Below are positions 40,252-64,000 of a stretch of DNA of 64,000 nt, piece after piece. Origin of the DNA: an uncultured Gammaproteobacteria bacterium. GTDB taxonomy: Bacteria > Pseudomonadota > Gammaproteobacteria > CAWUKA01. Below the pieces are notes generated by a model. The model was not told where the DNA came from and ran no database searches. It saw nothing but the letters and a program-made list of their open reading frames with translations. Position numbers and translations under genes: made by a program. The stretch lies in NCBI GenBank assembly GCA_963922965.1, contig CAWUKA010000001.1, forward strand, positions 3,990 to 67,989, given 5' to 3'. How positions within the stretch are numbered: the first letter of the stretch is position 1; every line of letters begins with the position of its first letter.

Positions 40252-40373
40252 AGTGATTCTCCTTGTGGGTGCGCGTTATTTTTATTCTTATGCGACCCAC
40301 ATGGGCCGGTGTGGTATAGTGTATCCTTAAGATGGGTAGAATTTTAAATGAGCAGCAACAGGGTTGCAAGCGA

Positions 40374-41471
40374 ATGCGTAAACATAGACTGATTGTTATC
40401 TCTGACCTCGCCGGTGGTGGCACCCAGTGGGTTTTAAGTCGACTACTTCCACAATGGTTAGCAGCTGGCCACCGATTGACAGTGGTCACGTTAGCGGGCA
40501 AAGAACACGATGCGGTTGCACTTGATCCGGCAGTGAATCGAATAGCACTGAATATGATGGCATCGTCTGGCAGTCTATTAGCTGGGATAAAAAATAATTT
40601 CCGTCGTATTATTGCCTTACGTAATCTATTTCGCGAGCAGAAGCCTGATATCATCATCAGCTTTATTGCTGCAACTAATATTATTAGTTTGCTTGCTACG
40701 ATTGGCTTATCCATCCCGGTTGTTATTTCCGAACGCAATGATCCAACACGGCAAGTGCTAGCCTTGCCTTGGCAACTACTCAGAAGAGGTTGTTATGGTC
40801 TTGCTGAGAAGGTAACAGCGAATAGTCAGTTTGCGCTAACAGAATTAAGTCGCTATGTGAAACAAGATAAACTAGCTTATGTCCCGAATCCACTACCGCA
40901 ACCAAGTACTCTGGTTTGTTGCAAAGAAAAATTTTTATTAGCAGTAGGTCGCCTACATCCACAAAAAGGCTATGATGTCATGCTTTCAGCTTTTGCCAAT
41001 AGCCAAGCTGTACAACTAGGTTGGCGGTTAAAAGTCTTGGGCGCAGGTTATTTGCTGCCAGAGCTACAGGTGCAATGTCAACAGCTAGGGATTGCTGATG
41101 ATGTTGACTGGTTAGGCTATCAAGCTAAAACAGCTAATTACTATCTAAAAGCATCTGCTTTTATCATAACTTCTCACTATGAAGGTATGCCAAATGTTTT
41201 ACTCGAAGCAGCAAACTATGCCTTGCCTATCATTGCTTCCGCTAGCTGTGAAGGAGCAAAAGAGATTTTACAAGATAAGCATTCATGTTTGTTTGTACCC
41301 GCGGCAGATATAGATGCATTTGCAACAGCAATTGATACATTAGTGTTAATGCCAGTAGCAAAAGCGCAGATCATGGGTCGAGCTGCGCAGCAGGTTGTTC
41401 AACAACAATTTAGCGAAGATGCAATTCAAACTGCTTGGCAGGCCATTTTTGAAGAACTTGAGTATGTCTAA
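40374..41471 (+). CDS. Glycosyltransferase family 4 (group 1)
   Basis: GT-B fold. The C-terminal region carries GT4 motifs (GRLHPQKGYDVML; EGMPNVLLEAANYALPIIAS). Start set at the internal Met (MRKHRLIVIS). Confidence 0.75.
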   Translation: MRKHRLIVISDLAGGGTQWVLSRLLPQWLAAGHRLTVVTLAGKEHDAVALDPAVNRIALNMMASSGSLLAGIKNNFRRIIALRNLFREQKPDIIISFIAATNIISLLATIGLSIPVVISERNDPTRQVLALPWQLLRRGCYGLAEKVTANSQFALTELSRYVKQDKLAYVPNPLPQPSTLVCCKEKFLLAVGRLHPQKGYDVMLSAFANSQAVQLGWRLKVLGAGYLLPELQVQCQQLGIADDVDWLGYQAKTANYYLKASAFIITSHYEGMPNVLLEAANYALPIIASASCEGAKEILQDKHSCLFVPAADIDAFATAIDTLVLMPVAKAQIMGRAAQQVVQQQFSEDAIQTAWQAIFEELEYV

Positions 41472-42663
41472 TAACAAACAAGTTGTTCTTTTTGTTGATG
41501 CGGGCAGCTCTGGTCGAGGCGGCTCTTTTCATAGTTTATGTGATTTGCTGCGAGTCAATCAGCAGCAGGGCAATACTAGCATTGTTGTCTTATTTAACTC
41601 ATCTCCGCTTGAAAAGCAGTATCAGTCATTTGGTGCAACTGTTCTTCAGCTACGTCATTCGGTATTTTCAACAGCGACAAAATCCGATTTTTGCTCATGG
41701 TGTTATAACAAGGCAAATGCAATTGCAGTTCGACTATCAACACAGTTAGGGTTAATTTTTGAAATGCTATTTCATCAGCCTGCATTAACCGAATTAAAAA
41801 AAATTGTCGATCAGCATAAAGTTACCTGTATTCATTTAAACAATCAGCCGATGCGGAATTTTTTTGGCTTTATGCTAGCAAAAAACAAGAACTTGCCGGT
41901 GGTGTCGCATCTTCGAACTACGCACACCTATGGCTTTACAAAAGCACATGCTAAATATGTCAATTCCATTGCTAGTCAGTTTATCGCGGTATCTGAAGCA
42001 GTAAAGCAGTGTTGGCAGCAACAAGGTTTACCTGCTGCTCATATTGCCGTGATAGGAAATCCAGTTGCGCTAAACAAACGAACTCTGAAAGGTGCTCGGC
42101 AACCATCGGACTCCTTTAAGGTGGTCTATGCAGGTCGGTTAGAATCAGCTAAGGGGCTTAATTTTTTATTGCGTGGTTTTGTTAAAGTGTACGCAGTCAA
42201 TCCAGCAATAGAGCTACATTTGCTTGGTGTCGGATCTTATCAGCACACACTTGAGCAAGCCGTTGCTGAACTCGGTATTGCCGAACAGACTTTTTTTCAC
42301 GGTTATGTTACAGATGTAATACAACAATTATCACTGTTTGATGTGCTCGTGCTACCTTCAGAGAATGAGGGTTTTGGTCGCGTTATCCTAGAGGCAATGG
42401 CAGCTGGGATTGCTGTGATTGCAACTCGGGTTGGCGGGATTCCCGAATTAGTCCAACATCATAAAACAGGCTTGTTGGTTGATTACAATGATGATGATCA
42501 ATTGGCTAGCAGTATTTTACAAATCCAACAACAGCATCAATGGTCTGCTGAAATGATTGAAAATGCTAACCAATTTCTACAAAATAATTATTCTTTTCCA
42601 TTGTTTAGCCAGCGTTTGCTGTCCATTTACTGTAATTTGGAACATCAGTATGAAAAAATATAA
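41464..42663 (+). CDS. Glycosyltransferase family 4 (group 1)
   Basis: EX7E-type GT4 motif region (SENEGFGRVILEAMAAGIAVIATRVGGIPELV). Start at ATG 41464 (MSNNKQVVLF), in an 8-nt overlap with the upstream GT. Confidence 0.78.
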   Translation: MSNNKQVVLFVDAGSSGRGGSFHSLCDLLRVNQQQGNTSIVVLFNSSPLEKQYQSFGATVLQLRHSVFSTATKSDFCSWCYNKANAIAVRLSTQLGLIFEMLFHQPALTELKKIVDQHKVTCIHLNNQPMRNFFGFMLAKNKNLPVVSHLRTTHTYGFTKAHAKYVNSIASQFIAVSEAVKQCWQQQGLPAAHIAVIGNPVALNKRTLKGARQPSDSFKVVYAGRLESAKGLNFLLRGFVKVYAVNPAIELHLLGVGSYQHTLEQAVAELGIAEQTFFHGYVTDVIQQLSLFDVLVLPSENEGFGRVILEAMAAGIAVIATRVGGIPELVQHHKTGLLVDYNDDDQLASSILQIQQQHQWSAEMIENANQFLQNNYSFPLFSQRLLSIYCNLEHQYEKI

Positions 42664-43267
42664 AACAGTAGCTTTATTAGGTCGTCAGGCTGGACTAGAA
42701 GTGCTACAAAATGTACTACTGACCGATGAACGTATCGAGCTCACTTGTGTGGTAACTCACGCTCAACTACCAACTGCCGAGGGTGGTGGTGAGCGCCCCG
42801 AATACAAACAATACCAGCAGCTTTGTGCAGCACATGCGCTACCTTTGCTAACGTTAGATAGAGATCAAGCTAAGCAACTCGATAGTTATTTGCCGACTAG
42901 TGAAATTGACTTCATCATATCATTGTCATGGCGCTATATTCTTCCTAAATCGCTATTAGCACGCGCGCGCTGTGCTAGCATCAATTTGCATCGCGGTGAT
43001 ATTGATAAATTTCCTGGCACACAGCCCGTACGTCGGGCACTGGAAGCTAACGAAACGCGGGTAGCGATTACGGCACATCACATGATAGAAGAAGTCGATG
43101 CTGGCCCAGCGCTTGCGACAGTTTGGCGAGAAGTCCCATCACTCGAGTCAAGTGCGCAGGATAGAGTTGCTTTGACTGAGGCGGTAAAGCAAAGCCTTAT
43201 TCCACTCTATTCACCACTATTGCAGCTTGCTTTAGATGCAGTGCTCACTGACCAGCGTTTCATATAA
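42650..43267 (+). CDS. Formyltransferase-domain protein (Fmt/PurN-like N-domain only)
   Basis: 206 aa. Catalytic triad context is conserved (INLHRG... with Asn and His; EVDAGP with Asp). Short, with no C-terminal tRNA-binding domain, which is the sugar N-formyltransferase type of architecture. Confidence 0.65.
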   Translation: MKKYKTVALLGRQAGLEVLQNVLLTDERIELTCVVTHAQLPTAEGGGERPEYKQYQQLCAAHALPLLTLDRDQAKQLDSYLPTSEIDFIISLSWRYILPKSLLARARCASINLHRGDIDKFPGTQPVRRALEANETRVAITAHHMIEEVDAGPALATVWREVPSLESSAQDRVALTEAVKQSLIPLYSPLLQLALDAVLTDQRFI

Positions 43268-43927
43268 TACAATTGATGTCTGAATAACACTATTTGTGTT
43301 AAAAAAATCTAGCATTGCATTGTCTGGAATAATTTTTAATTCGCTATACTCGTTGCTGTCACCCTGTTGAAATCGTTGTGCTATAACTTCAGCGTCTAAT
43401 GTTACCGTTAACGAAATCCCTAAGTCATAAACGCCAGTTGTGGTATCTTCGATTAAGACAAAACAGTCTACTGCTGTTGTTTCATCTAGCTTGATATTGA
43501 TTTCTTCCTCTAATTCATCGTATAGCTGTTGTAAAGGATTATCGCAATTACAGGCATCGACACTGCCGGAGGGGGCGCATTCCCAGTAATTTGGCAATTG
43601 GCTAACTACAGCTGAGCGACGCGCCAATAGGTAGCCGCTTTCGCAGTGTAATATGCCACTGACTGCTAGCGGTTGAATTTTCAGTTTAGTTTTTAGTTCG
43701 GGCGAAATTAATGTTGCAAGAAATTCTCGATAAGGTCGAATGCTGATTTCCAGCAACTGCGGTTGCCAGTTGTTTACGCTGACAATGTGATTATCTGTTA
43801 ATGATCTTTTTGCTGATTGCTGTTGCCAAATTTTATCGATCTGTTTTTCTAGTGAGGAATCGATAGTTGCGGTAGACTCTCTCGTAATAATTTTTAGTGG
43901 CTGCTTGAGCCGATAAACATGATTCAT
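43232..43927 (-). CDS. Hypothetical protein, possible divergent Nudix-fold hydrolase
   Basis: 231 aa. The segment YLLARRSAVVSQLPNYWECAPSGSVDACNCDNPLQQLYDELEEEINIKLD resembles the Nudix box GX5EX7REUXEEXGU, but key residues are substituted. Confidence 0.45.
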   Translation of the reverse strand: MNHVYRLKQPLKIITRESTATIDSSLEKQIDKIWQQQSAKRSLTDNHIVSVNNWQPQLLEISIRPYREFLATLISPELKTKLKIQPLAVSGILHCESGYLLARRSAVVSQLPNYWECAPSGSVDACNCDNPLQQLYDELEEEINIKLDETTAVDCFVLIEDTTTGVYDLGISLTVTLDAEVIAQRFQQGDSNEYSELKIIPDNAMLDFFNTNSVIQTSIVLYETLVSEHCI

Positions 43928-44568
43928 GGTGTTAACTCATCAATTAACTCAGCCAGAGAGCTGATCGATTCACAGGGGGTGGCATGTGCTTTTAGTGTAG
44001 TAGAAGGTTGTTTATTTAAGAGGAATGTTTTTATGCCGGCTTGCAATGCAGAACTCGCACCGGTTTCAGTGTCTTCAACCGCAATGCTATCAAGTGCTTG
44101 CACTGATGCTTGTTTTAGTGCAGCGAGATATGGTGCTGGATGTGGTTTACCTTGACTGGATTGTTTAGCGTCAATGATGAAGTCGATATATTCTATCAGA
44201 TTATGTTGCTCTAGCCAGTCTGAAATCAGTGATCTGTGATTTGAGGAGACAATTGCAATGCTATAAAAATTTTTCTTTGCGTGTTGTAGGACTTTCAAAG
44301 TACCGAGTATCGGTTGTACCTCTTGGTAGATCCGATTGACTTGTCTCATATAATTAGCTTTTAGTTCCGACTCGCTGATAGGTAAATCATAGCTTTGTTT
44401 TAGAAAAGCGATCACTTCATCAAGTGGTGGTCCATTTAAGCGAGCAAATTCATCTTCACTACCTTGGTAGCCAAATTCGGCTAAAAATCCATAGTATATT
44501 TCGACTAGTGCTGGGATACTATTTGCAATTGTACCATCGAAATCGAGAAATAAGCCTTGCTTCTTCAT
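43924..44568 (-). CDS. HAD-superfamily hydrolase (phosphatase or beta-phosphoglucomutase-like)
   Basis: Motif I LFLDFDGTIANS. The later SNHRS and (K)...DT motifs are consistent with HAD subfamily IA. Start set at the internal Met to avoid overlap. Confidence 0.75.
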   Translation of the reverse strand: MKKQGLFLDFDGTIANSIPALVEIYYGFLAEFGYQGSEDEFARLNGPPLDEVIAFLKQSYDLPISESELKANYMRQVNRIYQEVQPILGTLKVLQHAKKNFYSIAIVSSNHRSLISDWLEQHNLIEYIDFIIDAKQSSQGKPHPAPYLAALKQASVQALDSIAVEDTETGASSALQAGIKTFLLNKQPSTTLKAHATPCESISSLAELIDELTP

Positions 44569-44572
44569 ACTA

Positions 44573-45259
44573 TTACGCATAAGGATAAGTTCGGGCTCGG
44601 GCAACTTTAGCTGTTGACCAATCATCCCAGTTAATTTTCTGATAGGTTGTGCGCGCGTTGGGGTTTTGCTGGATTGCCGGTGCCACCCTTTGATTGATTA
44701 AAGGGACCATCATGGTCAGTAGCTCTTGCTCAAGTTCAATCATTTCTAAGTACAGCTCAGTTGCCGTCACTTGTCTTGGGTCGAGCTGGCACTTGACTTG
44801 AGCGATGATTGGTCCGGTATCTATGCCCTGATCAAGCCAAGATAATGTGATGCCAGTTTCATGGCAGTCGTTTAGTATGGCATTCACAATCGGTACCCAG
44901 CCGGCGCCTTTTGGTAACAATGATTCATGTAGTCCGATTAGGGGGTATAAATTTAATAAATCTGCATTGAATAACTGCTGCCAGCTGAGGCAATAAATAA
45001 AATCGGGGTTGAGTGATTTTATCTCTTGATAGAAGTCGTTGATGTTGCCATTTACTTCAATAACTGGAACTTTATTCGCAAACTTATATTGGCTTTTATC
45101 AATCAAATCGACACCTTCCCAGCCTGGTGAGCTTGGGCCACGAGTATAGAACATCACAATCTCTTCACCTAATGGTATCGAGCCGATTATCAGGGTAGTC
45201 AAATTGAATACTGTGAGTAAACCCAAGTATTTTGCCGGCTTTGCTGCTTTCCTCAGCAA
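44573..45259 (-). CDS. Formyltransferase-domain protein (Fmt-like N-domain); the 5' end overlaps an LmbE remnant
   Basis: Canonical formyltransferase core LIGLHESLLPKGAGWVPIVNAI...LDQGIDTGPII. The N-terminal ~30 codons of the ORF are the alternate frame of the LmbE fragment. Confidence 0.65.
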   Translation of the reverse strand: MLRKAAKPAKYLGLLTVFNLTTLIIGSIPLGEEIVMFYTRGPSSPGWEGVDLIDKSQYKFANKVPVIEVNGNINDFYQEIKSLNPDFIYCLSWQQLFNADLLNLYPLIGLHESLLPKGAGWVPIVNAILNDCHETGITLSWLDQGIDTGPIIAQVKCQLDPRQVTATELYLEMIELEQELLTMMVPLINQRVAPAIQQNPNARTTYQKINWDDWSTAKVARARTYPYA

Positions 45260-45764: not shown

Positions 45765-46973
45765 ATGACTGAATTTTTACCTTACGCAAAACAATTTATC
45801 GATGATGTTGATATTGACGCTGTAGTTGATGTATTAAAAAGTGATTGGCTCACTTGTGGTCCCACTGTCGATCGGTTCGAAACAGCGTTTGCTGAGTATG
45901 TAGGTAGTCAGCATGCAGTTGCATGTGCGAACGGTACCGCTGCACTGCACTTATTGACCTTAGCCCTTGGTATTGGTCCGGGGAATCAAGTCATTGTACC
46001 AAGTGTCACGTTTGCTGCTACTGCCAATGCTGTGCGTATGGCTGGTGCCGATGTTATTTTTGCTGATGTCGATCCTAATACTGGTCTTATCACAGCAAAT
46101 ACCCTCGCTGCTGCACTGCAGCGCTGCGAGCCTACTCGACTAGTCGCGGCTTATCCGGTTCATCTTGCTGGTCGTTATGTTGATATTGTAGTGCTGCGGG
46201 AATTGCTCGAATCATTTTGTCAACGTGATCCAGTTATCATTGAAGATAGCTGCCATGCGTTAGGGGGTTACCTTGCGGGAAGTCAACAGAAGATCGGTAG
46301 TTGCCAACACAGCACGGCAGCAACTTTTTCATTGCATCCGACAAAGATCATGACGGCAGGCGAGGGTGGCGTGATTACAATGAATGATGAGTCGTTAATG
46401 GCACAGTTAAAGCTGTTAAGAACACACGGCATTAGCCGAAATTCGCAACACTTTGTCAATTCAAGTTTTGCTGTTGCCGACAATGGCGAGCCAAACCCAT
46501 GGTATTATGAACTCCAGCAACTCGGCTTTAATTACCGGATTACCGACTTTCAGTGTGCACTGGCTGAAAGTCAACTTAAAAAGTTGGATGATTTTGTTGC
46601 CAAGCGGCAACAATTAGTGAATCACTACGACCATTGTTTACAACAAGCAGCTATTCCGCAGGTTCGGCCAATGCAGCGGGGTCAAGCGAGCAATAACAGC
46701 TGGCATTTATATGCGATCGAAATTGATTTTGCTGCAGCTGCTAAACCGCGTGCAGAAGTCATGCAGGCATTACGGCAACAAGGGATTGGCAGCCAAGTAC
46801 ATTACATTCCATTACACATACAGCCTTATTATCAGGCGCAATATGGAGAGCTTGAATTACCTGGTGCGTTTACTTATTACCAGCATACTTTATCTTTGCC
46901 ACTTTATTTTGCCATGAACAATTCGGATGTTGAGCAAGTGGTAGAAGTGCTGAGTGCTGTTTTAGCTGCTTGA
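45765..46973 (+). CDS. DegT/DnrJ/EryC1/StrS-family PLP-dependent sugar aminotransferase
   Basis: 402 aa. Its N-terminus and the conserved regions around GTAALHL and CHALGG are typical of nucleotide-sugar 4-aminotransferases of the PseC/ArnB type. The PLP lysine lies in the K-containing segment SLHPTKIMTAGEGG. Confidence 0.8.
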   Translation: MTEFLPYAKQFIDDVDIDAVVDVLKSDWLTCGPTVDRFETAFAEYVGSQHAVACANGTAALHLLTLALGIGPGNQVIVPSVTFAATANAVRMAGADVIFADVDPNTGLITANTLAAALQRCEPTRLVAAYPVHLAGRYVDIVVLRELLESFCQRDPVIIEDSCHALGGYLAGSQQKIGSCQHSTAATFSLHPTKIMTAGEGGVITMNDESLMAQLKLLRTHGISRNSQHFVNSSFAVADNGEPNPWYYELQQLGFNYRITDFQCALAESQLKKLDDFVAKRQQLVNHYDHCLQQAAIPQVRPMQRGQASNNSWHLYAIEIDFAAAAKPRAEVMQALRQQGIGSQVHYIPLHIQPYYQAQYGELELPGAFTYYQHTLSLPLYFAMNNSDVEQVVEVLSAVLAA

Positions 46974-47990
46974 TCAGATGTTGTAGACGTTTGCCTTGTA
47001 TTTCGCAAGATTAGCTGGATTCTTGAACCAATCAATCGTGATAGCCATTGCCTTGGAAAAATTGTCAAGGCCTGAGTATTGTGGTTGCCAATTTAAGCGT
47101 TGCTGCGCCAGACTATTATCAGCAACTAAACGATTCACTTCGCTTTTCTCTGGTCTAATGCGCTGCTCGTCTATGACTACATCAATGTCTTGTTGCATGA
47201 GTTCGGCAATTAAGTTGGCGGTATCACCTATTGAAATTTCGAAACCAGTACCTAGGTTCGTTGTTGTGCCAATACAACTATCGCTTGTCAGTGCGGCATA
47301 AAAACCTTCAGTGATGTCATCAACAAAGTTAAAGTCTCGTGTTGGTGTCAGCGCCCCGAGCTTGATTTGCTGATGTCCTGCTGCAATCTGACTGATAATC
47401 GTTGGAATGATGGCGCGTGCAGATTGACGTGGACCAAAAGTATTAAAGGGTCTGATCACAGCCACCGGCAGATCGTGTGAGCAGTGAAATGCAAGCGCGA
47501 GTTGGTCGGCTGCCACTTTTGATGCGGCGTAAGGGGATTGGGCTGATAGTGGGTGAGTCTCACTGATCGGTACCGTTTGCGCTGTGCCGTATACTTCACT
47601 GGTTGAGGTATGAATCACTTTTTTAAGACTAAGTTCGCGTGCAGCAGTTAACACATTAAGTGTACCGGTGACGTTGGTGTCGATATACGACTGCGCAGCG
47701 TAATAAGAGTAGGGGATAGCAACTAATGCTCCCAAATGGAGTACTGCATCACAGCCTCGCATCGCGTTATAAACAGTTTGGTAATCTCTTAAATCACCAG
47801 AAACAGTTTCGATGTTTGCTGTTTTGTGATGAGGTAATACTTCAGTGTCAAGCCAGCCGATTTGAGCAGACGAGTTGTAAAGATAAAACGCTTTGACATT
47901 GGCACCTTTTGCTAATAATTTTTCAACAAGATGAGAGCCGATAAAACCTTCTGAACCGGTTACGAGTATTGTTTTGTTATGAATTTCCAT
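46974..47990 (-). CDS. NAD-dependent nucleotide-sugar epimerase/dehydratase (extended SDR)
   Basis: 338 aa. Rossmann motif GSEGFIGSHL. Catalytic YAASK (YxxxK). Confidence 0.8.
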   Translation of the reverse strand: MEIHNKTILVTGSEGFIGSHLVEKLLAKGANVKAFYLYNSSAQIGWLDTEVLPHHKTANIETVSGDLRDYQTVYNAMRGCDAVLHLGALVAIPYSYYAAQSYIDTNVTGTLNVLTAARELSLKKVIHTSTSEVYGTAQTVPISETHPLSAQSPYAASKVAADQLALAFHCSHDLPVAVIRPFNTFGPRQSARAIIPTIISQIAAGHQQIKLGALTPTRDFNFVDDITEGFYAALTSDSCIGTTTNLGTGFEISIGDTANLIAELMQQDIDVVIDEQRIRPEKSEVNRLVADNSLAQQRLNWQPQYSGLDNFSKAMAITIDWFKNPANLAKYKANVYNI

Positions 47991-49173
47991 GATTAACCTC
48001 GGTTAGATGGGGGCTGCTTGGTAAATTTATAATTCGTTGTGCTAAATCTTCAGTGCAGGTTAGGTCCATGTGTGGACTGTGCTGATAGATGTTAAGTGTA
48101 TGCAATGGCTGCCAAGCTGGTCGTAACAAAACCTTTGCTGCGTGTGCGCGAGCAAGAATGGCTTCATGTAGATTTTGATCAGCTTGTTTTAATAAAAGTG
48201 CATTGAGCCAATAGTTACTGCGAGCAAAGTCTGCTTCTGCAAAGCAATCAACGTATGAATTGCCAGCAAATGCATTTTGATAGCGTGCCGCTAATGTTCT
48301 TTTCAACTCGACAAAATGTTGCAATGATTGTAACTGAGCAACACCGAGAGCAGCGTTGATGTTAGGTAGACGATAATTATAACCGATTTCATCATGCTGA
48401 TAGTGCCATGGGTGACTGCACTTTGCTGTGGTTGCCAAATGTTTAGCGCGCTTTGCATAGTTGGCATTGTTGGTGACCAATGCTCCGCCACCACCGGTGG
48501 TAATGATTTTATTGCCATTAAAGCTGAACATAGCGATATCAGCATGATTGCCAACGTGTTTATTTTTATAGAAAGAACCGAGTGCTTCGGCGGCGTCTTC
48601 GATCAGGTACAGCTGGTACTCATCGCATAGTGCACGACAACTATCAAGATTTGTTGGGTGGCCAAAAGTATGCATGACACATAGCGCTGAAATTTTGCGT
48701 CCAGTTTGTTCATTGAAGACTGCATTGTCTCTGCGTTGTGCGATTTGGCTAAGATAGTCGGCAAGTTTATCAGTATCAACACCTAAAGAATTTTCGTCGA
48801 TATCAACAAAGTGAGGGTATGCGTCTAGGTAACTAATGGCATTGGCAGTGGCGACAAAGGTTAAACTTGGTACTAGTACTTCATCATTGGCTTTGATATC
48901 AAGCACCCGCAACGCAAGGTGTAACGCTGTTGTCCCATTTACAGTTGCAACAGTATGTTTGATACCAGTAAGCATTGACAATTGCTGTTCGAATTCGGCG
49001 ACATATTTGCCAAGATAGGAAACATAGCCACTATCGAGTGCGCTGATGACGAATTTTTTCTCAGCTTCGCCTATGCAAGGTTCATGCAGTGGCAACGTCG
49101 TATTAGTTTGGCCGGTCACTTGCCGAATAATGCCGATAATCTGATCGGAAATAATTTTATGCTCATCGAGCAT
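47977..49173 (-). CDS. DegT-family aminotransferase (LegC/PseC-like)
   Basis: Conserved DegT regions (VATVNGTTALHLALR; FSFNGNKIITTGGGGAL). Start set at the internal Met (MLDEHKIIS). Confidence 0.8.
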   Translation of the reverse strand: MLDEHKIISDQIIGIIRQVTGQTNTTLPLHEPCIGEAEKKFVISALDSGYVSYLGKYVAEFEQQLSMLTGIKHTVATVNGTTALHLALRVLDIKANDEVLVPSLTFVATANAISYLDAYPHFVDIDENSLGVDTDKLADYLSQIAQRRDNAVFNEQTGRKISALCVMHTFGHPTNLDSCRALCDEYQLYLIEDAAEALGSFYKNKHVGNHADIAMFSFNGNKIITTGGGGALVTNNANYAKRAKHLATTAKCSHPWHYQHDEIGYNYRLPNINAALGVAQLQSLQHFVELKRTLAARYQNAFAGNSYVDCFAEADFARSNYWLNALLLKQADQNLHEAILARAHAAKVLLRPAWQPLHTLNIYQHSPHMDLTCTEDLAQRIINLPSSPHLTEVNHGNS

Positions 49174-50396: not shown

Positions 50397-50404
50397 CCTC
50401 ACCA

Positions 50405-53546: not shown

Positions 53547-53548
53547 CC

Positions 53549-55548: not shown

Positions 55549-55881
55549 CTAGCTTGATGGCGCTAGTTTTAACGCGGCTATGCGTTTATCTAACTCTAGC
55601 ACTTCTGTAGTGTCGCTTGGTGAACTTGCTGGCGGTGGGAAGATGTTGTAATATTTACCATCTTCACTGTCTATACTCACTGTACCTGGATATGCTGCTT
55701 CTGTTGGAATCGTAGCTGTAGGCTGAGCATCGGCTGCAGATGCTTGTGGTGAGTTTGACTCCTCAGCAGATTGTCGGGGCAGTGTTGCTGTACGCGTTTG
55801 TTTTGCCCTAGGTCTTCCCTCCTCCTTTCCTTCTCCCCCAAGCTCGCAAAGATTGCCTGCAATTGTTCTGCTACGTTTCAT
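55549..55881 (-). CDS. Small low-complexity (P/S/A/T-rich) hypothetical ORF in a locally GC-rich, polypyrimidine-rich patch
   Basis: 110 aa with no motif. It coincides with a GC-rich stretch (55741-55860) that is atypical for the surrounding AT-rich cluster. It may be spurious. Confidence 0.25.
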   Translation of the reverse strand: MKRSRTIAGNLCELGGEGKEEGRPRAKQTRTATLPRQSAEESNSPQASAADAQPTATIPTEAAYPGTVSIDSEDGKYYNIFPPPASSPSDTTEVLELDKRIAALKLAPSS

Positions 55882-55978: not shown

Positions 55979-57131
55979 TTAGCTTTTACTGGCTAATAGC
56001 GTTTTTAGGCTAGCTAGTGCTTGTGAGAATGGTATCACTTCAATGTCATCTTGATAGTAGTAGTGCGTTTGACCACCGTAGAGTAAATAGTATTTTGCCA
56101 TTGGGTAATCAGCGGCAAAGGTTTTTATCGCTTTGAAGTCGGCTTTGTTTAAATTTGATTTTCGTTTTATTTCAAAAGCGAAAAAACTATTATTACCATA
56201 TAAGATAAAATCAACTTCGAGTTGATTTTGAGTGCGCCAATAATAAAAATTATAATCAAGTTCAAAGTAAGCATTAAGCGCCATTGCTTGTTGCAAGAAT
56301 AGTGTTTCTAACACAGCTCCTTCTAATTCTTCGGTCGAGTCCAGCACTCCTTGTGGTCTTAATGAGCGGTAGACGCCAACATCAAAAAAGTAAAATTTAG
56401 GTCGTGAAGCCATATTGCGTTTGGCACGTTTTTTAAAAATAGGAATACGGTGCGCGATTAATAAGTCTTCTAGAATATCAAAGTAATTAGCAATGGTATG
56501 ACGATTCGATGAAGTTTCTTTAGCAATACGTGTGTAATTAGTCACGTCGCCTTGTGAGAAACTTGCTACTTCTAGAAATTTGGCGAATAAATTGAGATTG
56601 CGCGTCAAACTTTCTTGTAATACTTCTTCGCGAAGATAAATTTTAACATAACTCGCTAAATAATTTTTTGGATCTTCATATGTATAAATCGAAGGCAAGT
56701 TACCAAATTGTAATGACGTTGTTAAAGAGAATTGTGCGCCAAGTTCGTAGCTCGTGAGTGGATGCATTTGCTTAGTTAAAGCACGGCCAGCTAACAGGTT
56801 AACTCCTTTTTTTCGTAATGCTCGCGCGCTAGAGCCAGTGATTATAAATTTGCTGCCCCTTGTTTCGATCAGTCGATGCACTTCATTGAGTAACAGAGGA
56901 ATTTTTTGTATCTCATCTATGATGACCCAGTCCGGTGTATTTAGCAGGAATGCGACTGGCTAAGCTGGCTGGATTTGCCAGTAAAGCTTGATACTCGTCA
57001 GTCCTTAACAGGTCAAAGGTAATAGCATCTGGCAGTAAGTGCCCTAACCAGTATGCTTTACCGTTCCTCTCGGGCCGAGCAACGATGCTATGTTTCGAAC
57101 GGGGATTCAGTTTTAATAGTCTTTCAAACAT
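55979..57131 (-). pseudogene. AAA+ ATPase of the COG1373/DUF4143 family, split by a frameshift
   Basis: An N-terminal fragment (56913..57131, carrying a degenerate P-loop RPERNGKAYWL) and a C-terminal 300-aa ORF (55979..56881). The C-terminal frame reads upstream as ...PDWVIIDEIQKIPLLLNEVHRLIETRGSKFIITGSS (Walker B), out of frame with the N-terminal part. Confidence 0.6.
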
Positions 57132-57326: not shown

Positions 57327-59177
57327 TTACACTGTATCTATTGGTTCGAAAGCGTTGATCTGATTGCCGAATAAAGCTCTGAATTGATTGTTGGTTTGAT
57401 AAAGTTCATTGAAACTACCTTGCGCAAGACATTGACCAGCGTCAATAACCACTAACTTGTCACATAAGCGAATTGATGAGGCGCGGTGGGCGATGATGAT
57501 CAGTGTTTTGATCTTGCTAAGTTGTTGCAATGCGGCGTTAAAATCATTTTCAGTGATTGAGTCGAGCGCGTTGGTTGCTTCATCCATAATGAGAATATCT
57601 GGATCGCGATACAGTGCGCGTGCAATACCAACGCGCTGACATTGGCCGCCTGATAGGCGCATCCCATGCTCACCGACTCGTGTGTTTAACCCATCAGGTA
57701 GTTCGCTGATAAATTGATTCAGTTGTGCTGCTGCAATTGCAGCATTGAGTTTGTCAAGATCAATATTATTTTGTTCGATACCAAAAGCTATATTTGTCAT
57801 TAAGGTATCATCAAGTAAGAAAATCTTTTGCGGCACATAACCGATCAGCGACGATAGTGCGGATGTGTCCTGACTAATGTCATCATCATCAAGTATGATT
57901 TTACCTTGTTTAATCGTCAGTAAGCCAAGAATCACATTAACCAGCGTACTTTTACCAGCACCAGATAAACCAACAATGCCAAGCGAAGAGTTTTTTTCAA
58001 TCGTGAGTGAAATATCGTTTAGTGCATTCAGCCTGCTATTAGGGTATTGGTAACTCACATTTTGCAACGTTAACCGATGCTTGAAGTGAATCGATGAGTA
58101 GTGAAAATTAGCACTAAGTATTTGTTTGCTTGGTGTTGATTTGATGATGTCATGAATAATAAATACTGAAGCATGATAGCGGCGCAGTAAACCGATCGCG
58201 TTATAAATCCGAACTGATACTGGTAGTAAGCGCTGCACCGATAATGCCATCACGCTTAAAATAGGTAGTATGCTAATCAAGTTTCCGTGTGTAGCGAGAA
58301 GGTAGAGCATGATTAACACCAAGACCGCAAATGCAATGGTGTTAAGTGCGATACCTGGGGTAGCAGAAATGGTTTCAAACAGGATATTCTTTTGGTTCAA
58401 TGCCCGAACCGGCGTCATGAAACGTTCGATAAAAAAACTTTCACTGTGATGACTATTAATTTCTTTTTTGCCTTGGAGGCTTTCGGTTGCGTACTGGTGG
58501 ATATGCCTACTGAGCAGTTCGTTTTCTCTGCTGATCCGTGTGATGGCATGCTTACTATAACGGCTTATTAACGTCATGCACGCTGCAATAACCACTGTCA
58601 CTGAGATCACTAACCCAGGATCGATGCTAATCATGAGCGTCGTTAATGTTATCAAGATAAGGCCATCCGTGAGTATGGTTAAAGTTTGTTTCAATACGGA
58701 GGCAGTATAGTTGGTATCAACTAACAAATGCTTTGCATAAGTAGATGAGTTCAGATCAGTCGTTTGTTCGTAAGGTGTGTACAGAAAACACTGCAGACAG
58801 CGATGAGATAAACTGCGCGAAAAGCTGGTCGTAAATTTGCTTTGTATAATAATGTTGGTAAGCGATAGCACGCCTTTAACCAGGATCACACCAATAATAC
58901 AAAGCCCCAAAAAGATCATGAACCGATGATCAGATGAAAAATGCAATAATAAATAAATCCGCTGCAATGTTGCATTGCTATGAATCAATCCCGGCTGCGA
59001 TAAAATCTTCACATAGGGAAAAATGGCCCCGACACCAACTAGCTCAATGGCTGATAACGCTAACATGGCGAGTATCAATTGTGCGGACTGATACTTTTGT
59101 TGTTTAAGTAATAATGACCAAATCGCGCTAATGATTGACTTTGATTTAGGCTGGCTCATGCTGATTGTGTTTCTCAT
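57327..59177 (-). CDS. ABC exporter with fused transmembrane and ATP-binding domains (MsbA/type I exporter-like)
   Basis: 616 aa. An N-terminal 6-TM domain followed by an NBD with Walker A GLSGAGKST, signature LSGGQCQRVGIARAL and Walker B ILIMDEATNALD. Confidence 0.85.
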   Translation of the reverse strand: MRNTISMSQPKSKSIISAIWSLLLKQQKYQSAQLILAMLALSAIELVGVGAIFPYVKILSQPGLIHSNATLQRIYLLLHFSSDHRFMIFLGLCIIGVILVKGVLSLTNIIIQSKFTTSFSRSLSHRCLQCFLYTPYEQTTDLNSSTYAKHLLVDTNYTASVLKQTLTILTDGLILITLTTLMISIDPGLVISVTVVIAACMTLISRYSKHAITRISRENELLSRHIHQYATESLQGKKEINSHHSESFFIERFMTPVRALNQKNILFETISATPGIALNTIAFAVLVLIMLYLLATHGNLISILPILSVMALSVQRLLPVSVRIYNAIGLLRRYHASVFIIHDIIKSTPSKQILSANFHYSSIHFKHRLTLQNVSYQYPNSRLNALNDISLTIEKNSSLGIVGLSGAGKSTLVNVILGLLTIKQGKIILDDDDISQDTSALSSLIGYVPQKIFLLDDTLMTNIAFGIEQNNIDLDKLNAAIAAAQLNQFISELPDGLNTRVGEHGMRLSGGQCQRVGIARALYRDPDILIMDEATNALDSITENDFNAALQQLSKIKTLIIIAHRASSIRLCDKLVVIDAGQCLAQGSFNELYQTNNQFRALFGNQINAFEPIDTV

Positions 59178-59479: not shown

Positions 59480-60499
59480 ATGGCTGTCAGTCAGCAGCAG
59501 AAACCACTACTCATTGCTGAGGTTGGGCAAGCGCATGATGGCTCTTTGGGTATAGCCCACGCCTACATTGATGCAGCTGTCGATGCCGGTGCTGATGTGG
59601 TGAAATTCCAAATGCATATCGCGAGTGAGGAATCCACCCTTGATGAGCGGTTCCGGGTGAACTTCAGCTATCAAGATGCAACCCGTTTTGACTACTGGCG
59701 CCGTATGGAGTTTACTGAGGCCGAGTGGCTTACATTAAAGACCCACGCTGAACAGCGTGGGTTGCAATTTTTATGTTCGGTGTTTTCGGTGGCGGCAGTG
59801 CAGCGGTTGCAACGCTTGCAAGTAACGGCTTACAAGGTTGGCTCCGGTGAAATACAATCGACTGATTTACTTGCTGCATTACTTGAGACGGGTAAACCCT
59901 TACTCATCAGTACTGGCATGTCAAATTATACTGAGATCGATGATCTGGTTAAGCAACTTGAGTTAGTAAAGGCCGATTATTTGTTGATGCAATGTACGTC
60001 TGCCTATCCGGTGCCGCTTACAGAGGTAGGTATGAATGTGATTACTGAATTTAAACAACGTTATCCGTGTCAGATTGGTTTTTCTGATCACTCTGGCTCG
60101 ATCTACCCGAGCTTGTTTGCAATGACACAAGGTGTTGCGGCAGTTGAAGTGCATGTTGTGTTTGATAAGGCGATGTTTGGTCCTGATGTTAAAGCATCAC
60201 TGACGTTTGCGGAGTTGAAAACATTAGCAGAGGCGCGAGATGCGTTTCACACCATGCAAACCAGTCCAGTTGATAAAGATAACATGGCAAGTAGCCTAGC
60301 ATCGATGCGCTCACTGTTTAATAAAAGTGTTGCACTCAGTGTAGACTTGCCTGCTGGCACCTTGCTAGATGCGAATATGTTGACACTAAAGAAGCCCGGT
60401 ACTGGTATTCCACCTGGGCATATGAGCGATATATTTGGTAGGCGCTTGAAGCATGCTGTTACTGCTGATCGTCTACTCAAAATTGAGGATTTAGAATAA
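59480..60499 (+). CDS. neuB: N-acetylneuraminate/legionaminate synthase family (NeuB/LegI/PseI)
   Basis: 339 aa. LLIAEVGQAHDGSLGIAHAYIDAAVDAGADVVKFQ TIM-barrel motif. C-terminal SAF domain. Confidence 0.88.
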   Translation: MAVSQQQKPLLIAEVGQAHDGSLGIAHAYIDAAVDAGADVVKFQMHIASEESTLDERFRVNFSYQDATRFDYWRRMEFTEAEWLTLKTHAEQRGLQFLCSVFSVAAVQRLQRLQVTAYKVGSGEIQSTDLLAALLETGKPLLISTGMSNYTEIDDLVKQLELVKADYLLMQCTSAYPVPLTEVGMNVITEFKQRYPCQIGFSDHSGSIYPSLFAMTQGVAAVEVHVVFDKAMFGPDVKASLTFAELKTLAEARDAFHTMQTSPVDKDNMASSLASMRSLFNKSVALSVDLPAGTLLDANMLTLKKPGTGIPPGHMSDIFGRRLKHAVTADRLLKIEDLE

Positions 60500-60501
60500 C
60501 T

Positions 60502-61647
60502 ATGCGAACGATTTGTGTTGTCGTCAATAGCCGTGCTAATTACGGCCGGATAAAATCAGTATTGCAAGCCATTCAAGCGCACCCTGATTTGAATTTGAAG
60601 TTGGTAGTTGGCGCATCGGCACTATTATACCGCTATGGTGCAGTGCATGAGGTGATCGAGAAAGATGGCTTTGCGATCGATGCTACCATCTACTCGATAT
60701 TAGAAGGCGAAAAGCCAACAACGATGGCTAAATCGACCGGAATGGGCATCATTGAAATATCATCAGTATTCGAGCAATTGCAGCCTGACATCGTTATCAC
60801 CGTCGCTGATCGGTTTGATACCTTGGCGACTGCAGTAGCGGCGAGCTACATGAATATTCCACTAGCACATACGCAAGGTGGTGAGGTTACTGGCTCGATT
60901 GATGAGAGCGTCCGTCATGCGATTAGTAAGCTCGCGCATATTCATTTTCCAGCAACTAAGCAAGCCGCCGAATACTTAGTCCGGATGGGTGAAGATCCGG
61001 AAACGGTACATTGGGTAGGCTGCCCAGCTATCGATGCTATTGCTAAGATTGATTTATCTTTGCCAACTAATTTTTTTAACCAGGCAGCTGGTGTTGGTGC
61101 TACACTTGATAGTGATCAGCCTTATCTCGTTGTATTGCAACATCCAGTCACGACTGAGTTTGGTCAAGGCTATCAACAAATCAAACAAACACTAGCTGCA
61201 ATTGCTGAGATTAAGATGCAAACGGTCTGGCTCTGGCCCAATGTTGATGCAGGCTCGGATGATGTATCAAAAGGATTGCGCGACTTTCGTGAAAAATATA
61301 AGCCTGATTATTTACATTTTTATCGTAATTTTCCTGTTGAGGATTATGCCCGTCTGATTAACAATTGTAGTTGTCTAATTGGTAATTCAAGTTCTGGCTT
61401 ACGTGAAGGCAGTTATCTTGGTATCCCGGTTGTTAATATTGGTACGCGCCAAGCAGGGCGTGAACATGCTAGTAACATTATGTTTGCTGATTATGTAGCT
61501 ACTGACATTCAAGCAAAGATTATGCAGCAGTTGGCACATGGGCGTTACCCCTCAGCAAACTTATTTGGTGATGGTCATGCTGCAGAGAAAATTGCCGATA
61601 TTTTAGCGAAGACACCGATCAAGATTCAAAAGAGACTACATTACTGA
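60502..61647 (+). CDS. neuC: UDP/GDP-N-acetylglucosamine 2-epimerase (hydrolysing), NeuC/LegG family
   Basis: 381 aa. N-terminus MRTICVVVNSRANYGRIKSVL is typical of hydrolysing NeuC-type 2-epimerases. Confidence 0.85.
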   Translation: MRTICVVVNSRANYGRIKSVLQAIQAHPDLNLKLVVGASALLYRYGAVHEVIEKDGFAIDATIYSILEGEKPTTMAKSTGMGIIEISSVFEQLQPDIVITVADRFDTLATAVAASYMNIPLAHTQGGEVTGSIDESVRHAISKLAHIHFPATKQAAEYLVRMGEDPETVHWVGCPAIDAIAKIDLSLPTNFFNQAAGVGATLDSDQPYLVVLQHPVTTEFGQGYQQIKQTLAAIAEIKMQTVWLWPNVDAGSDDVSKGLRDFREKYKPDYLHFYRNFPVEDYARLINNCSCLIGNSSSGLREGSYLGIPVVNIGTRQAGREHASNIMFADYVATDIQAKIMQQLAHGRYPSANLFGDGHAAEKIADILAKTPIKIQKRLHY

Positions 61648-62375
61648 TGGCTATTCGGGGTTTATCCGTTTTAGCTTTGGTGCCAGCACGTGGTGGAAGC
61701 AAAAGTATCAGCAAAAAAAATCTGTGCTTGGTAGGTGGCTTATCACTGGTTGCGCGAGTTGCGGCAGTTGTTAGCAGTATCGACTGGATCGATTTTGCTT
61801 TACTCAGCACTGATGACAAAGACATAGCGGCTGAAGGTATGCAACATGGTTTGTCAGTACCGTTTCTAAGGCCTGATAAACTTGCTCGAGATGATACTAC
61901 GGCGCTAGCAACTTGGCAGCATGACTGGCTGGCAGTAGAACGTCATTGCCAACAGCAATTCGACATTGCAATTTGGTTGCAGCCAACCAGCCCAACTCGA
62001 ATTGTTGCTGATGTTGAGATGACAGTGAATGCGCTGTTAACCAATAACTGTTTTGCAGCAGCTACCGTGAGTCGATTGCCGGGCCATTACCATCCGGAAA
62101 AAATTTTACAGATCGACGCTAATAATTATCTCGAATATTATGTCGGCGGTCAGCAAGGGAAAAGTTTGCGTCAGCAGTTAACACCTTATTATTACCGCAA
62201 TGGTCTTTGTTATGCCGCTAAACGCCAATGCATTTTGGAGTTGAACAGTATAATCGAATATCAATGTTACCCTGTTGTGATTGACAGGCCAGTTGTTAAT
62301 ATTGACGAGCCCTATGAATTAGCATTAGCCAATTGGATGACAGAAGAAGATGACAAGATCAAAGCAGCTACGTGA
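61647..62375 (+). CDS. neuA: Acylneuraminate cytidylyltransferase family (NeuA/LegF)
   Basis: 242 aa. [18 protein letters not shown], the CMP-NeuAc synthetase N-terminal motif. Confidence 0.85.
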
Positions 62376-63972
62376 TTTAATTGACTCGAACCAGCTTGAG
62401 TTTATTTTGGAAGCCCATAATGGCCTGAGTGCAAAAATTGTTGCAGAAGCTGGTTTTAAAGGCATTTGGGCCAGTGGGTTGACCATCTCAGCGCAGTTTG
62501 GTGTACGCGACAATAATGAGGCAAGTTGGACCCAGGTGCTCGAAAATGTTGAATTTATGGCTGATGCTGTTGAGTTACCAATTTTGTTAGATGGCGATAC
62601 CGGTTATGGCAATTTTAACAATATGCGTCGCTTGGTGAATAAGTTAGAGCAGCGCCAGGTTGCTGGTGTTTGTATTGAAGATAAATTATTTCCAAAAACC
62701 AATAGTTTTATCAAAGGTGATGCCCAGCCACTTGCTGATATTGACGAGTTTTGCGGCAAAATAAAAGCCGGTAAAGATGCGCAACTCGATGATGACTTTG
62801 TGATTGTCGCCCGGATTGAAGCATTTATTGCTGGCTGGGGTATTGCTGAGGCGATTAAGCGCGCTGAGGCTTATCATGCTGCTGGCGCTGATGCGATTTT
62901 AATTCATAGTGCACTTGCTGTAGCTGATGAGATTCTCGCGTTTAAGAAGGAATGGGCTAGCCATTTGCCGGTGCTCATTGTGCCAACAAAATATTATGCT
63001 ACGAGTACCGAAATTTTTCGTGAGTACGGTTTTTCGTTGGTGATTTGGGCAAATCACCTTTTGCGTTCAGCAATTAATGCGATGCAGGGTACTGCGAATA
63101 GAATATATCACGATCAAAATCTACTCGCGGTTGAGGATCAGGTTGTATCTGTTGCTGAAGTATTTCGTTTGCAAGGCGCTGACGAATTAAAGCAAGCTGA
63201 ATCATTGTATTTGCCAAAACATTATGATAGCCAATATCGTGCATTGGTGTTAGCTGCTTCACGTGGTAAAGAGATGGGCGAGTTAACCCTCGATAAGCCG
63301 AAAACAATGCTACGCATTGGCGGTAAACCTCTGTTGGCACGTATTATCGATAGTTATCGAGCGGCTGGCATCAAGCAAATTGGTGTTGTTCGCGGTTATA
63401 AAAAAGATCAGGTGAACTTGGTCGATATTGTTGCAATCGACAATGATGAGTATGATTCAACCGGTGAACTTACCTCATTAGAGAAAGGTTTAATTCATTA
63501 TAAAGACAGTGCCAGTATGCCAATGATTGTTTCATATGGTGATGTTTTATTTAGAAAATATATCGTTGAGTTACTCAAAGAATCGAAAGCAGACTTTGCA
63601 ATTGCAGTTGATGTCAATTGGCATGAGAGTCGGAATAAGAATCGTGATGCAGATTATATTACCGCTGATGTGGCTTATTCACGCTACAGTCAAGCTGATA
63701 GTATTAGCTTGCAATATATTGCAAGTGATGTTGACGAAGTGGCTATTCATGGTGAGTGGATTGGAATGCTCAAACTATCAAGTGTTGGTGTATCTGCGCT
63801 AGAAACTATTTTAGCTGAGCTGCGTCAGCAAGCAAATTACAATAATTTGCAAATGCCTGATTTGCTGAACGCCCTAGTACAACGCAATCATCAAGTTGCG
63901 GTTATTTATACGACAGGGAATTGGCTCGATATCGATAGCGTTGAAGACGCAGTATATGCGGGAGAGTTTTAA
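62350..63972 (+). CDS. Phosphoenolpyruvate phosphomutase fused to a C-terminal nucleotidyltransferase domain (Ppm-PntC-like)
   Basis: 540 aa. N-terminal ~290 aa: ICL/PEPM fold with the PEP mutase-specific motif [10 protein letters not shown] (EDKxxxxxNS) and the LDGDTGYG metal site. C-terminal ~250 aa: nucleotidyltransferase-like ([25 protein letters not shown]). Confidence 0.8.
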
Positions 63973-64000
63973 TGGTTAATGCGACACAGTTTATTGAGCT

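Follow-up and report, generated by a model that had tools for sequence, protein, structure and literature searches.

A nonulosonate glycan locus of probable mosaic origin, with a possible Nudix/HAD substitute for PseG, in an uncultured gammaproteobacterium

Does a gene cluster that holds dehydratases, aminotransferases, neuB-neuC-neuA genes and a set of tailoring enzymes encode one nonulosonate pathway or several? The question is raised by a locus in a 64,000-nucleotide stretch of DNA (the window) from an uncultured Gammaproteobacteria bacterium (assembly GCA_963922965.1, contig CAWUKA010000001.1, positions 3,990 to 67,989 of the forward strand). Nonulosonic acids (sialic, legionaminic and pseudaminic) shape the recognition of bacteria by hosts, phages and amoebae, and the pathways leading to them are targets for drugs and glyco-engineering, with PseG treated as an essential, conserved step. 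The original prediction was that positions 40332-64000 carry a complete core for a single, heavily decorated nonulosonic acid (NulO) of the legionaminic (Leg) or pseudaminic (Pse) type. Our analysis favours a different reading, i.e. that this surface-glycan locus is probably a mosaic of four modules of different ancestry rather than one complete Leg/Pse pathway. More tentatively, we propose that NudL, a NUDT22-like Nudix family with more than 1000 representatives at 50% identity and no Pfam or NCBIfam model, forms with a HAD phosphatase an undescribed two-step replacement of PseG, which would be the sole means of nucleotide removal in the formyl-type Pse branch of this locus, and that aminoethylphosphonate (AEP) is placed on a sialic-type NulO glycan. 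The locus is a variation on nonulosonate loci already described and does not constitute a system of a new kind.

Gene content was established from a listing of open reading frames (ORFs) and from scans with curated models (Pfam, and NCBIfam/TIGR with their cutoffs); PDB-based sequence searches were also used for identities. A metagenome scaffold from ENA (L001), 100% identical to the final 2 kb of the window, runs on beyond its edge, and with this 9.6-kb extension the visible sequence amounted to ~74 kb. L001 carries further genes of the locus, which is therefore ~32 kb long, extending from 40332 to ~72,700 (window-equivalent) and cut by the window edge; thus the predicted start stands, while the predicted end at 64000 does not.

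In place of one core, the locus contains two separate front ends, PseB/PseC and PtmE/LegB/LegC. A single PseB/LegB dehydratase had been predicted; the type of function was right and the number was not, since two distinct enzymes are encoded. PseB, an inverting UDP (uridine diphosphate)-N-acetylglucosamine (GlcNAc) 4,6-dehydratase (54409-55434, minus strand), scored 524.8 bits against TIGR03589 (cutoff 407.75), and the LegB-type NAD-dependent 4,6-dehydratase (46974-47990, minus strand) scored 472.5 bits against TIGR04180, marginally under the cutoff of 475. The two predicted DegT aminotransferases resolve as PseC (45765-46973, plus strand; TIGR03588, 458.6 bits, cutoff 423.5) and a LegC-family enzyme (47977-49224, minus strand; TIGR04181, 501.8 bits, cutoff 420). 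The PseB/LegB and PseC/LegC pairs yield products of opposite configuration (L-altro versus D-gluco). The closest relatives of PseB among species-representative genomes are 60-69% identical and come mostly from alphaproteobacterial metagenome-assembled genomes.

The second front end is completed by a PtmE-like protein (49317-50396, plus strand), which has the expected two-domain architecture of a CBS pair (residues 11-111, KpsF model) and a sugar-1-phosphate nucleotidyltransferase (128-348). As a reference we used L172, a textbook Leg cassette on the Sphingomonadaceae plasmid CP099622.1 (LegB, LegC, NeuC, NeuB, acetyltransferase, nucleotidyltransferase and cytidylyltransferase), with which LegB, LegC and PtmE share domain architecture and 55, 43 and 39% identity, respectively. 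This locus differs from that seven-gene arrangement in that the acetyltransferase is missing and the genes form two blocks, separated by ~9 kb that include a Pse-type operon. PtmE, LegB and LegC (module 2) would produce GDP (guanosine diphosphate)-4-amino-4,6-dideoxy-GlcNAc, which may end as an N-acylated bacillosamine-type hexose or be fed to NeuC.

The back end, predicted to be LegI/LegG/LegF-like, consists of three adjoining plus-strand genes: a NeuB-family synthase (59480-60499), a NeuC hydrolysing 2-epimerase (60502-61647) and a NeuA-type cytidylyltransferase (61647-62375). The genes are as predicted, but the Leg affinity did not hold up: identity to the counterparts in the L172 cassette amounts to only 32% for NeuC, 24% for NeuB and 25% for NeuA, as against 69, 58 and 50% to those of another module (locus L168). 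NeuC exceeded the cutoff of TIGR03568 (391 versus 236 bits), and its best PDB match was human GNE (255.8 bits, versus 197.5 for Acinetobacter baumannii LegG). NeuB scored below cutoff against both TIGR03569 (259 bits, cutoff 399.65) and the PseI model TIGR03586 (187 bits, cutoff 340); it is 31.6% identical to Neisseria meningitidis NeuB, 24% to Campylobacter jejuni PseI and 56-58% to the synthases of loci L166-L170. NeuA, a sub-cutoff match to the PseF model TIGR03584 (87.9 bits, cutoff 205.7) and the only protein of the locus to match that family, found in PDB solely cytidine monophosphate (CMP)-N-acetylneuraminic acid (Neu5Ac) synthetases, at 46-52 bits.

Neighbour-joining trees anchored with N. 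meningitidis NeuB and C. jejuni PseI (taken from PDB alignments), human GNE and A. baumannii LegG gave the same picture. The NeuB tree fell into three clades (PseI, Leg-cassette and sialic-side), with the window protein in the sialic-side clade and outside that of the L172 and L033 synthases; NeuC was likewise on the sialic side, apart from the clade that A. baumannii LegG forms with L172 and L033. Grouping with sialic-acid families thus applies to NeuB, NeuC and NeuA, and not to the dehydratases or aminotransferases. With the sialic NeuBCA systems (N. meningitidis SiaC/NeuB; GNE) the window proteins share best PDB matches and tree grouping, while NeuB departs from them in its sub-cutoff TIGR03569 score and its modest identity to the N. 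meningitidis enzyme. NeuB was also considered as a PseI and rejected, being 24-31% identical to members of the PseI clade, which share 42-46% among themselves.

Genomic context was compared as well. In four of five contexts of the NeuB clade (L166-L169), neither a 4,6-dehydratase nor a DegT aminotransferase is present within 9-10 kb on either side, although such genes do occur at the present locus. In L168 an ABC exporter precedes NeuB, as it does here. Two of these relatives hold a conserved module of their own (L168, 6016-14543; L169, 10001-19203), with NeuB, NeuC, a 2-hydroxyacid dehydrogenase, a thiamine pyrophosphate (TPP) enzyme, a GFO_IDH oxidoreductase, a cytidylyltransferase, a deacetylase and a sulfotransferase, and with no dehydratase or aminotransferase; judging from its genes, it may represent an undescribed pathway to a modified, possibly sulfated sialic-type sugar. 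At the present locus the dehydrogenase, TPP enzyme and GFO_IDH genes are replaced by AEP genes.

Some observations weigh against a sialic-type assignment. The trees are small and unbootstrapped and include no Leg sequences of Legionella pneumophila or C. jejuni, and the identity of NeuC to GNE (34.8%) barely exceeds that to Leg epimerases (30-32%, these being 45-50% identical to one another). Moreover, NeuABC of L. pneumophila make legionaminic acid with front-end genes that are not adjacent, so the absence of a neighbouring dehydratase and aminotransferase is no proof of a Neu5Ac product. The L. pneumophila serogroup 1 O-antigen locus, which directs a Leg homopolymer with acetimidoyl and N-methyl groups, contains neuABC-type genes, HisH/HisF-type partners and a methylase, and a further likeness lies in the eukaryote-like effector-type domains (RCC1, OTU) encoded by the host of the window; in comparison, PseB/PseC, the PtmE/LegB/LegC route to a GDP-sugar, the Nudix/HAD pair and the AEP genes are extra here.

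The core as a whole was examined in window and L001 together. No match to PseG was found at E<=1 (using a PseG profile validated against TIGR03590), there was no GNAT match at E<=1 that could represent PseH and no match to TIGR03585, and tblastn with the acetyltransferase of L172 detected no LegH/NeuD. PseI is also missing from the ~74 kb, as the lone NeuB-family synthase scores far below the PseI cutoff and lies outside the PseI clade, and there is no second synthase. With one synthase and no PseG, PseH or LegH, the core is not complete as claimed. PseB and PseC match the canonical Pse pathway of C. jejuni and Helicobacter pylori (PseB, PseC, PseH, PseG, PseI, PseF) above equivalog cutoffs; what differs is the lack of PseH, PseG and PseI and a cytidylyltransferase that is SpsF-type rather than a TIGR03584 member, with Fmt-fold proteins and a NUDT22-like Nudix/HAD pair standing where PseH and PseG would. 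This SpsF-type enzyme (CTP_transf_3; 53549-54283, minus strand; PF02348, 98.4 bits) is a putative CMP-Pse synthetase; among 80 PseB loci examined the type occurs in 27, nearly always to the exclusion of the NeuA/PseF type.

These findings bear directly on the view that a single 5,7-diamino nonulosonate pathway is encoded in full and that its product receives amidino, methyl, formyl and phosphonate groups, a pathway in which neuBCA are LegI/LegG/LegF and both aminotransferases and cytidylyltransferases serve the same sugar. All of the genes that it names exist and are clustered, and PtmE, LegB, LegC, NeuA, NeuB and NeuC account for all but one of the seven genes that make up the classical Leg cassette (as defined in the descriptions of TIGR04180/04181 and exemplified by L172); furthermore, automatic annotation by the Joint Genome Institute calls many NeuB homologues N,N'-diacetyllegionaminate synthase. 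We nevertheless consider this view very unlikely, because PseB and LegB, as well as PseC and LegC, are distinct enzymes with products of opposite configuration, each at or near its own curated model, because the back end is distant from the Leg cassette and outside the Leg clades, and because LegH/NeuD was not found and the Pse-type operon has a cytidylyltransferase of its own.

On the mosaic reading, module 1 would comprise a PglK-like exporter and NeuB/NeuC/NeuA as a portable sialic-type back end, co-oriented with the AEP pathway and with genes for soluble proteins that are candidate transferases of NulO or phosphonate. It would make a CMP-activated nonulosonate from a hexosamine nucleotide, the likeliest route being from UDP-GlcNAc to a Neu5Ac-type sugar; alternatively, it may have been recruited to process the LegB/LegC product. 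The latter idea leads to a hybrid Leg pathway, in which sialic-type NeuC/NeuB/NeuA and an Fmt acyltransferase replace LegG/LegI/LegF and LegH to give a derivative of CMP-Leg, for example Leg5Ac7Fo, with the Pse branch as a separate entity. Co-location would supply the LegB/LegC product with a downstream route and NeuC with a local substrate, two Fmt-fold genes are available, and A. baumannii LegG acts on GDP- and UDP-sugars (according to its PDB title), which speaks for nucleotide promiscuity in the class. Sialic-acid synthases and CMP-synthetases are known to accept Leg-type substrates. On the other hand, the orthologous neuBCA modules lack a Leg front end in the four contexts mentioned above, and FmtA (see below) regularly partners the Pse-type NudL/HAD module, not Leg genes. 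A further argument comes from L054, the sole PseB locus of the 80 that also holds true LegB, LegC and PtmE (59, 47 and 39% identity) and a genuine PseI (467 bits); with no NeuC, NeuB/LegI-type synthase or NeuA-type cytidylyltransferase in view, it indicates that no Leg back end is needed for the Leg front-end trio to occur next to a Pse cluster. Taken together, we regard the hybrid pathway as unlikely, though less so than the single pathway. Immediately downstream of PseI, L054 also encodes subunits S and E of a glutamate (methylaspartate) mutase (16067-18062), whose presence hints at an unusual N-acyl donor.

Two genes overlooked in the original inventory (whose listed genes are all present) may stand in for PseG in the Pse branch; the third gene overlooked is a pseudogene described below. 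The first, NudL (43232-43927, minus strand; 231 aa), is a predicted UDP-sugar pyrophosphatase of the two-domain, NUDT22-like Nudix type, and the second (43924-44625, minus strand) is a HAD-IA phosphatase of the beta-phosphoglucomutase-like type with a DxDGT motif, which matched TIGR02009 at 78 bits and sugar-phosphate phosphatases in PDB. The NudL protein gave no sequence match in Pfam, NCBIfam or PDB and appeared to be an orphan in a word-indexed search, a status overturned by an exhaustive HMMER search, which returned 1045 representatives (529 at E<=1e-10). Members of the family show weak NUDIX matches and are named NUDIX hydrolase in the sources; in their alignment the Nudix box is degenerate (W-E-L-V-P-S-G-G ... 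E-L-x-E-E-x-G), and its Glu residues are invariant or nearly so. An AlphaFold model based on this alignment reached a predicted local distance difference test score (pLDDT) of 95.4 and a predicted template-modelling score (pTM) of 0.90, and in Foldseek human NUDT22 was its best match, across both domains (E 1e-14, versus 5e-7 for the next). The modelled NudL has both domains of the NUDT22 fold, and the acidic residues of its Nudix box are conserved. NUDT22 breaks UDP-glucose down to yield glucose-1-phosphate plus UMP (uridine monophosphate; PMC10101856). NudL differs from this human UDP-glucose/galactose hydrolase in being bacterial, only 14-18% identical, obligately paired with a HAD protein and set in Pse clusters, and a UDP-2,4-diamino-2,4,6-trideoxyhexose, not UDP-glucose, is the presumed substrate.

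Protein fusions tie the NudL domain to Pse enzymes. We found HAD-NudL (five proteins), GNAT-HAD-NudL, GNAT-NudL, NudL-GNAT, NudL-CTP_transf_3-Glyco_tran_28_C and NudL-Glyco_tran_28_C-GNAT architectures, the HAD-NudL unit occurring in at least six proteins overall. As for gene neighbourhoods, a Nitrobacter locus reads PseB, PseC, a 544-aa protein, PseI, NudL, HAD, methyltransferases and SpsF-type cytidylyltransferase, two flagellar loci contain PseB, NeuB-type synthase, HAD and NudL, and in one further locus a GNAT-NeuB fusion is flanked by HAD and NudL genes.

A metagenome scan provided 80 more loci, annotated with local profiles validated against curated models (the PseG profile being built from envelopes only). 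Among NudL-anchored loci with a flank of at least 3 kb (n=20), each with NudL, an adjacent HAD gene was present in all 20, a NeuB-type synthase in 18, PseB in 14 and PseG in 2, both of the latter being NudL-PseG fusions. PseB-anchored loci with a flank of at least 8 kb (n=46), all with PseB, yielded a NeuB-type synthase in 34 and PseG in 23 cases, and neither HAD nor NudL in any. When only clusters with PseB, PseC and a synthase were compared, PseG occurred in 29 of 41 PseB-anchored and 2 of 10 NudL-anchored ones (Fisher p=0.0085). The synthases of NudL loci qualify as true PseI (480-495 bits, cutoff 340), and none of the 10 unassigned ORFs scanned, which came from four of the eight PseG-less clusters (L082, L101, L158, L164), matched the PseG model. 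The compact cluster L158 consists of PseB, PseC, Fmt, Fmt, HAD, PseI, NudL and NeuA. Two Nudix-type Pse clusters, L101 (7580-8911, 13662-14762) and L158 (7710-9224), share a recurrent aminotransferase resembling glutamate-1-semialdehyde aminomutase (PRK06209, above cutoff), and L101 additionally holds a FemAB-family protein (TIGR04421); these proteins may take part in aminoacyl decoration of Pse.

In module 3, as we infer it, PseB and PseC would form UDP-4-amino-4,6-dideoxy-N-acetyl-L-altrosamine, an Fmt-fold enzyme would N-acylate this product in place of PseH, NudL would cleave the UDP-sugar to UMP and a sugar-1-phosphate, and the HAD phosphatase would free the sugar, so that NudL and HAD would jointly take two steps where PseG needs a single one. 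The sugar would then be condensed with phosphoenolpyruvate (PEP) by a PseI whose gene lies beyond the visible 74 kb, and the SpsF-type cytidylyltransferase would activate the product. Such a bypass of PseG, proposed on gene content and context, is a possibility that we put forward with caution. The idea that the NudL product is re-activated by PtmE as a GDP-sugar was rejected, the L-altro configuration of the PseB/PseC product being incompatible with the D-gluco configuration of the LegB/LegC route.

Several observations weigh against the bypass. The Pse branch has no synthase in view, and if pseI lies elsewhere in the genome, pseG could do so too. In L141 and L143 NudL, with all of its conserved residues intact, is fused to a true PseG (204-218 bits); NudL is thus not simply redundant with PseG, both activities coexist in some organisms, and an accessory role is possible. 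PseG is missing within 10 kb on either side often enough, since 12 of the 41 PseB-anchored clusters have neither a detectable PseG nor NudL. A serious rival is therefore that NudL and HAD are accessory or repair enzymes, which destroy off-pathway or surplus UDP-sugars (e.g. a C5-epimerised by-product of PseB), with PseG, PseH and PseI encoded elsewhere in the genome. It gains from the L141 and L143 fusions and from the fact that PseI is already missing from the visible locus, i.e. that Pse genes are dispersed here. Nevertheless, the constant pairing with HAD, the frequent nearby PseI-type synthase and the lack of PseG in eight of ten complete NudL clusters, where the ORFs scanned in four revealed no hidden PseG, speak against a repair role, and clusters as compact as L082 and L158 would be left with no nucleotide-removing enzyme. 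We consider this explanation rather doubtful, and somewhat less probable than the bypass. Searches of viral contigs and plasmids found no NudL, and the literature searched yielded no paper connecting Nudix enzymes with nonulosonate pathways.

The acylation step proposed for the Pse branch depends on two Fmt-fold proteins. Both had been predicted as formyltransferases, and the fold is indeed present in each, while both depart from the catalytic consensus. FmtA (42650-43267, plus strand), with NCBIfam formyltransferase/ArnA/PurN matches, retains N-x-H (INLH) and Asp (VDAGP) and has lost the SLLP loop; FmtB (44573-45259, minus strand), which matched Fmt, ArnA and dTDP (deoxythymidine diphosphate)-4-amino-4,6-dideoxyglucose formyltransferase models and, in PDB, ArnA, VioF, WlaRD and WbtJ, contains HESLLP and has Gly in place of the catalytic Asn (IGLH), all of these motifs being read by eye from the sequence. 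Because FmtB lacks the catalytic Asn and FmtA the SLLP loop, the formyl chemistry is uncertain, which also counts against our proposal for this branch. Orthologues of FmtA (34-48% identity) are present in 11 Nudix-type Pse loci, and L143 encodes an FmtB orthologue that is 63% identical.

Further tailoring genes make up module 4, which is located within the PseB operon and would add acetamidino and methyl groups. The predicted acetamidino trio of HisH, HisF and WbpG is represented by contiguous, overlapping minus-strand genes of one operon: a WbuX/WbpG-type N-acetyl sugar amidotransferase (51769-52923; TIGR03573, 319.4 bits, cutoff 203.2), a HisH-like glutaminase subunit (51150-51785; TIGR01855, 216.6 bits, cutoff 105.4) and a WbuZ/HisF-like cyclase subunit (50405-51172), the last slightly under cutoff (TIGR03572, 263.3 bits, cutoff 299.7; AglZ/HisF2, 238.8). 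Next to them lies a Pse-associated methylase (52935-53546, minus strand), the small PseM-like protein of the original prediction, which scored 219.9 bits against TIGR03587 (cutoff 112). Methylase and WbuX-type amidotransferase are both familiar from Pse clusters; among the 80 PseB loci, the former was detected in 18 and the latter in 14. Gene content hence agrees with a NulO glycan locus that has acetamidino, methyl, formyl-type and phosphonate tailoring potential.

The phosphonate part begins directly downstream of neuBCA with a PEP mutase (Ppm) fused to a PF12804 nucleotidyltransferase of the PntC type (62350-63972, plus strand; TIGR02320, 385.8 bits, cutoff 319.6), which carries the EDKxxxxxNS motif at residue 110. 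It continues on L001 with Ppd (TIGR03297, 395.9 bits, cutoff 312.5), AepZ (TIGR03301, 372.8 bits, cutoff 360.8) and a second, separate nucleotidyltransferase of 257 aa. The latter and the Ppm-fused domain are probably both PntC-type cytidylyltransferases, and with the SpsF- and NeuA-type enzymes the three predicted nucleotidyl-activation enzymes (or more) are accounted for. Four soluble proteins of 444, 540, 480 and 357 aa follow, among them three to four candidate transferases: that of 480 aa belongs with the BFO_1060 glycosyltransferase family by its match (E 2e-11) and also hits TIGR04396, and that of 540 aa shows a weak likeness to TagF-type glycerophosphotransferases (Glyphos_transf, E 1e-3). 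A fusion to PF12804 is present in approximately 33% of Ppm enzymes, and extra nucleotidyltransferases may lie 1-2 genes away (Rice et al. 2019, PMC6697681). The locus shares with the Pnt phosphonyl-tailoring clusters described there the same fusion, Ppd, AepZ and an extra nucleotidyltransferase two genes off; it differs from them in having no LicD-type phosphotransferase (there was no LicD match in the locus, which leaves the weakly TagF-like 540-aa protein and the BFO_1060-family proteins as sole candidates) and in the position of the AEP genes behind neuBCA. AEP genes were present in none of the 80 PseB loci, and the combination of neuBCA with AEP was not found in the literature searched.

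Two GT4 glycosyltransferases and an ABC exporter had also been predicted, and curated models confirmed all three. The glycosyltransferases are encoded at the left end of the locus on the plus strand (40332-41471 and 41464-42663) and are 27% identical to each other; both have GT4 family matches (several in the case of the second), and the first is weakly PglH-like (135 bits, far under cutoff). The exporter (57327-59177, minus strand) is a fused transmembrane-domain/nucleotide-binding-domain protein of the PglK/MsbA-like type, with 305.9 bits for PglK and 279 for MsbA, both sub-cutoff. There is no WaaL, Wzy, Wzz or oligosaccharyltransferase in the visible locus, and Wzm/Wzt and lag-1-type genes were not seen at the locus; the gene content does not discriminate between an O-antigen, a capsule and a protein glycan.

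If the Nudix/HAD bypass is real, many Pse pathways that seem incomplete in genomes would be complete, PseG-directed inhibitors would miss the organisms that use it, and a new enzyme pair would become available for the chemoenzymatic release of rare diamino sugars. Second in interest after this module is that neuBCA are directly linked to a complete AEP pathway; the prediction that follows is of a nonulosonate glycan with phosphonate decoration, made by an uncultured bacterium that is probably intracellular. The locus, whose front ends and back end differ in ancestry, also carries a warning for annotation, as neuB/neuC/neuA labels and automatic legI names do not tell which nonulosonate is made.

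The predicted cluster had been described as low in GC. Its GC content (0.40-0.45) matches that of the remainder of the window (0.39-0.49 window-wide), the composition being uniform with no outlier, and a low-GC island was thus ruled out on base composition. Between the PseB operon and the ABC exporter (modules 3 and 1) lies the third overlooked gene, an AAA_14/DUF4143 ATPase pseudogene (55979-57131, minus strand), which a frameshift has divided into an N-terminal fragment of 72 aa and, in another frame, a C-terminal ORF of 300 aa (PF13635, 110.9 bits on the latter); it may be a scar of module assembly by recombination. A neighbouring low-complexity ORF of 110 aa (55549-55881, minus strand), with no family match, is possibly not a gene. 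All of the proteins tested, among them the class II aldolase (39184-40251) that forms the left border of the locus, were singletons at 90% identity. An Rfam scan of the window revealed no RNA genes (no rRNA or tRNA), and a promoter/terminator scan gave the numbers expected from shuffled sequence (45 versus 46.0 expected, and 23 versus 17.6).

Directly upstream of the bordering aldolase, positions 30830-39181 encode an OPT-family oligopeptide transporter, an ABC transporter with an AAA-associated C-terminal domain and a TolC-like/MacB-like efflux set. Farther upstream, a gene for an OTU-like cysteine protease (PF02338; 25424-26809, plus strand) adjoins one for an RCC1-repeat protein (PF25390/PF00415; 26834-28978, minus strand). 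Eukaryote-like RCC1 and OTU domains are typical of effectors in intracellular, amoeba-associated bacteria, and the presence of both genes suggests an intracellular or amoeba-associated host. Just beyond the right end of the locus, L001 encodes (20619-21527, minus strand; ~window-equivalent 72,968-73,876) a 302-aa protein with no family match and an acidic SESESESEEEED tail, which may be effector-like.

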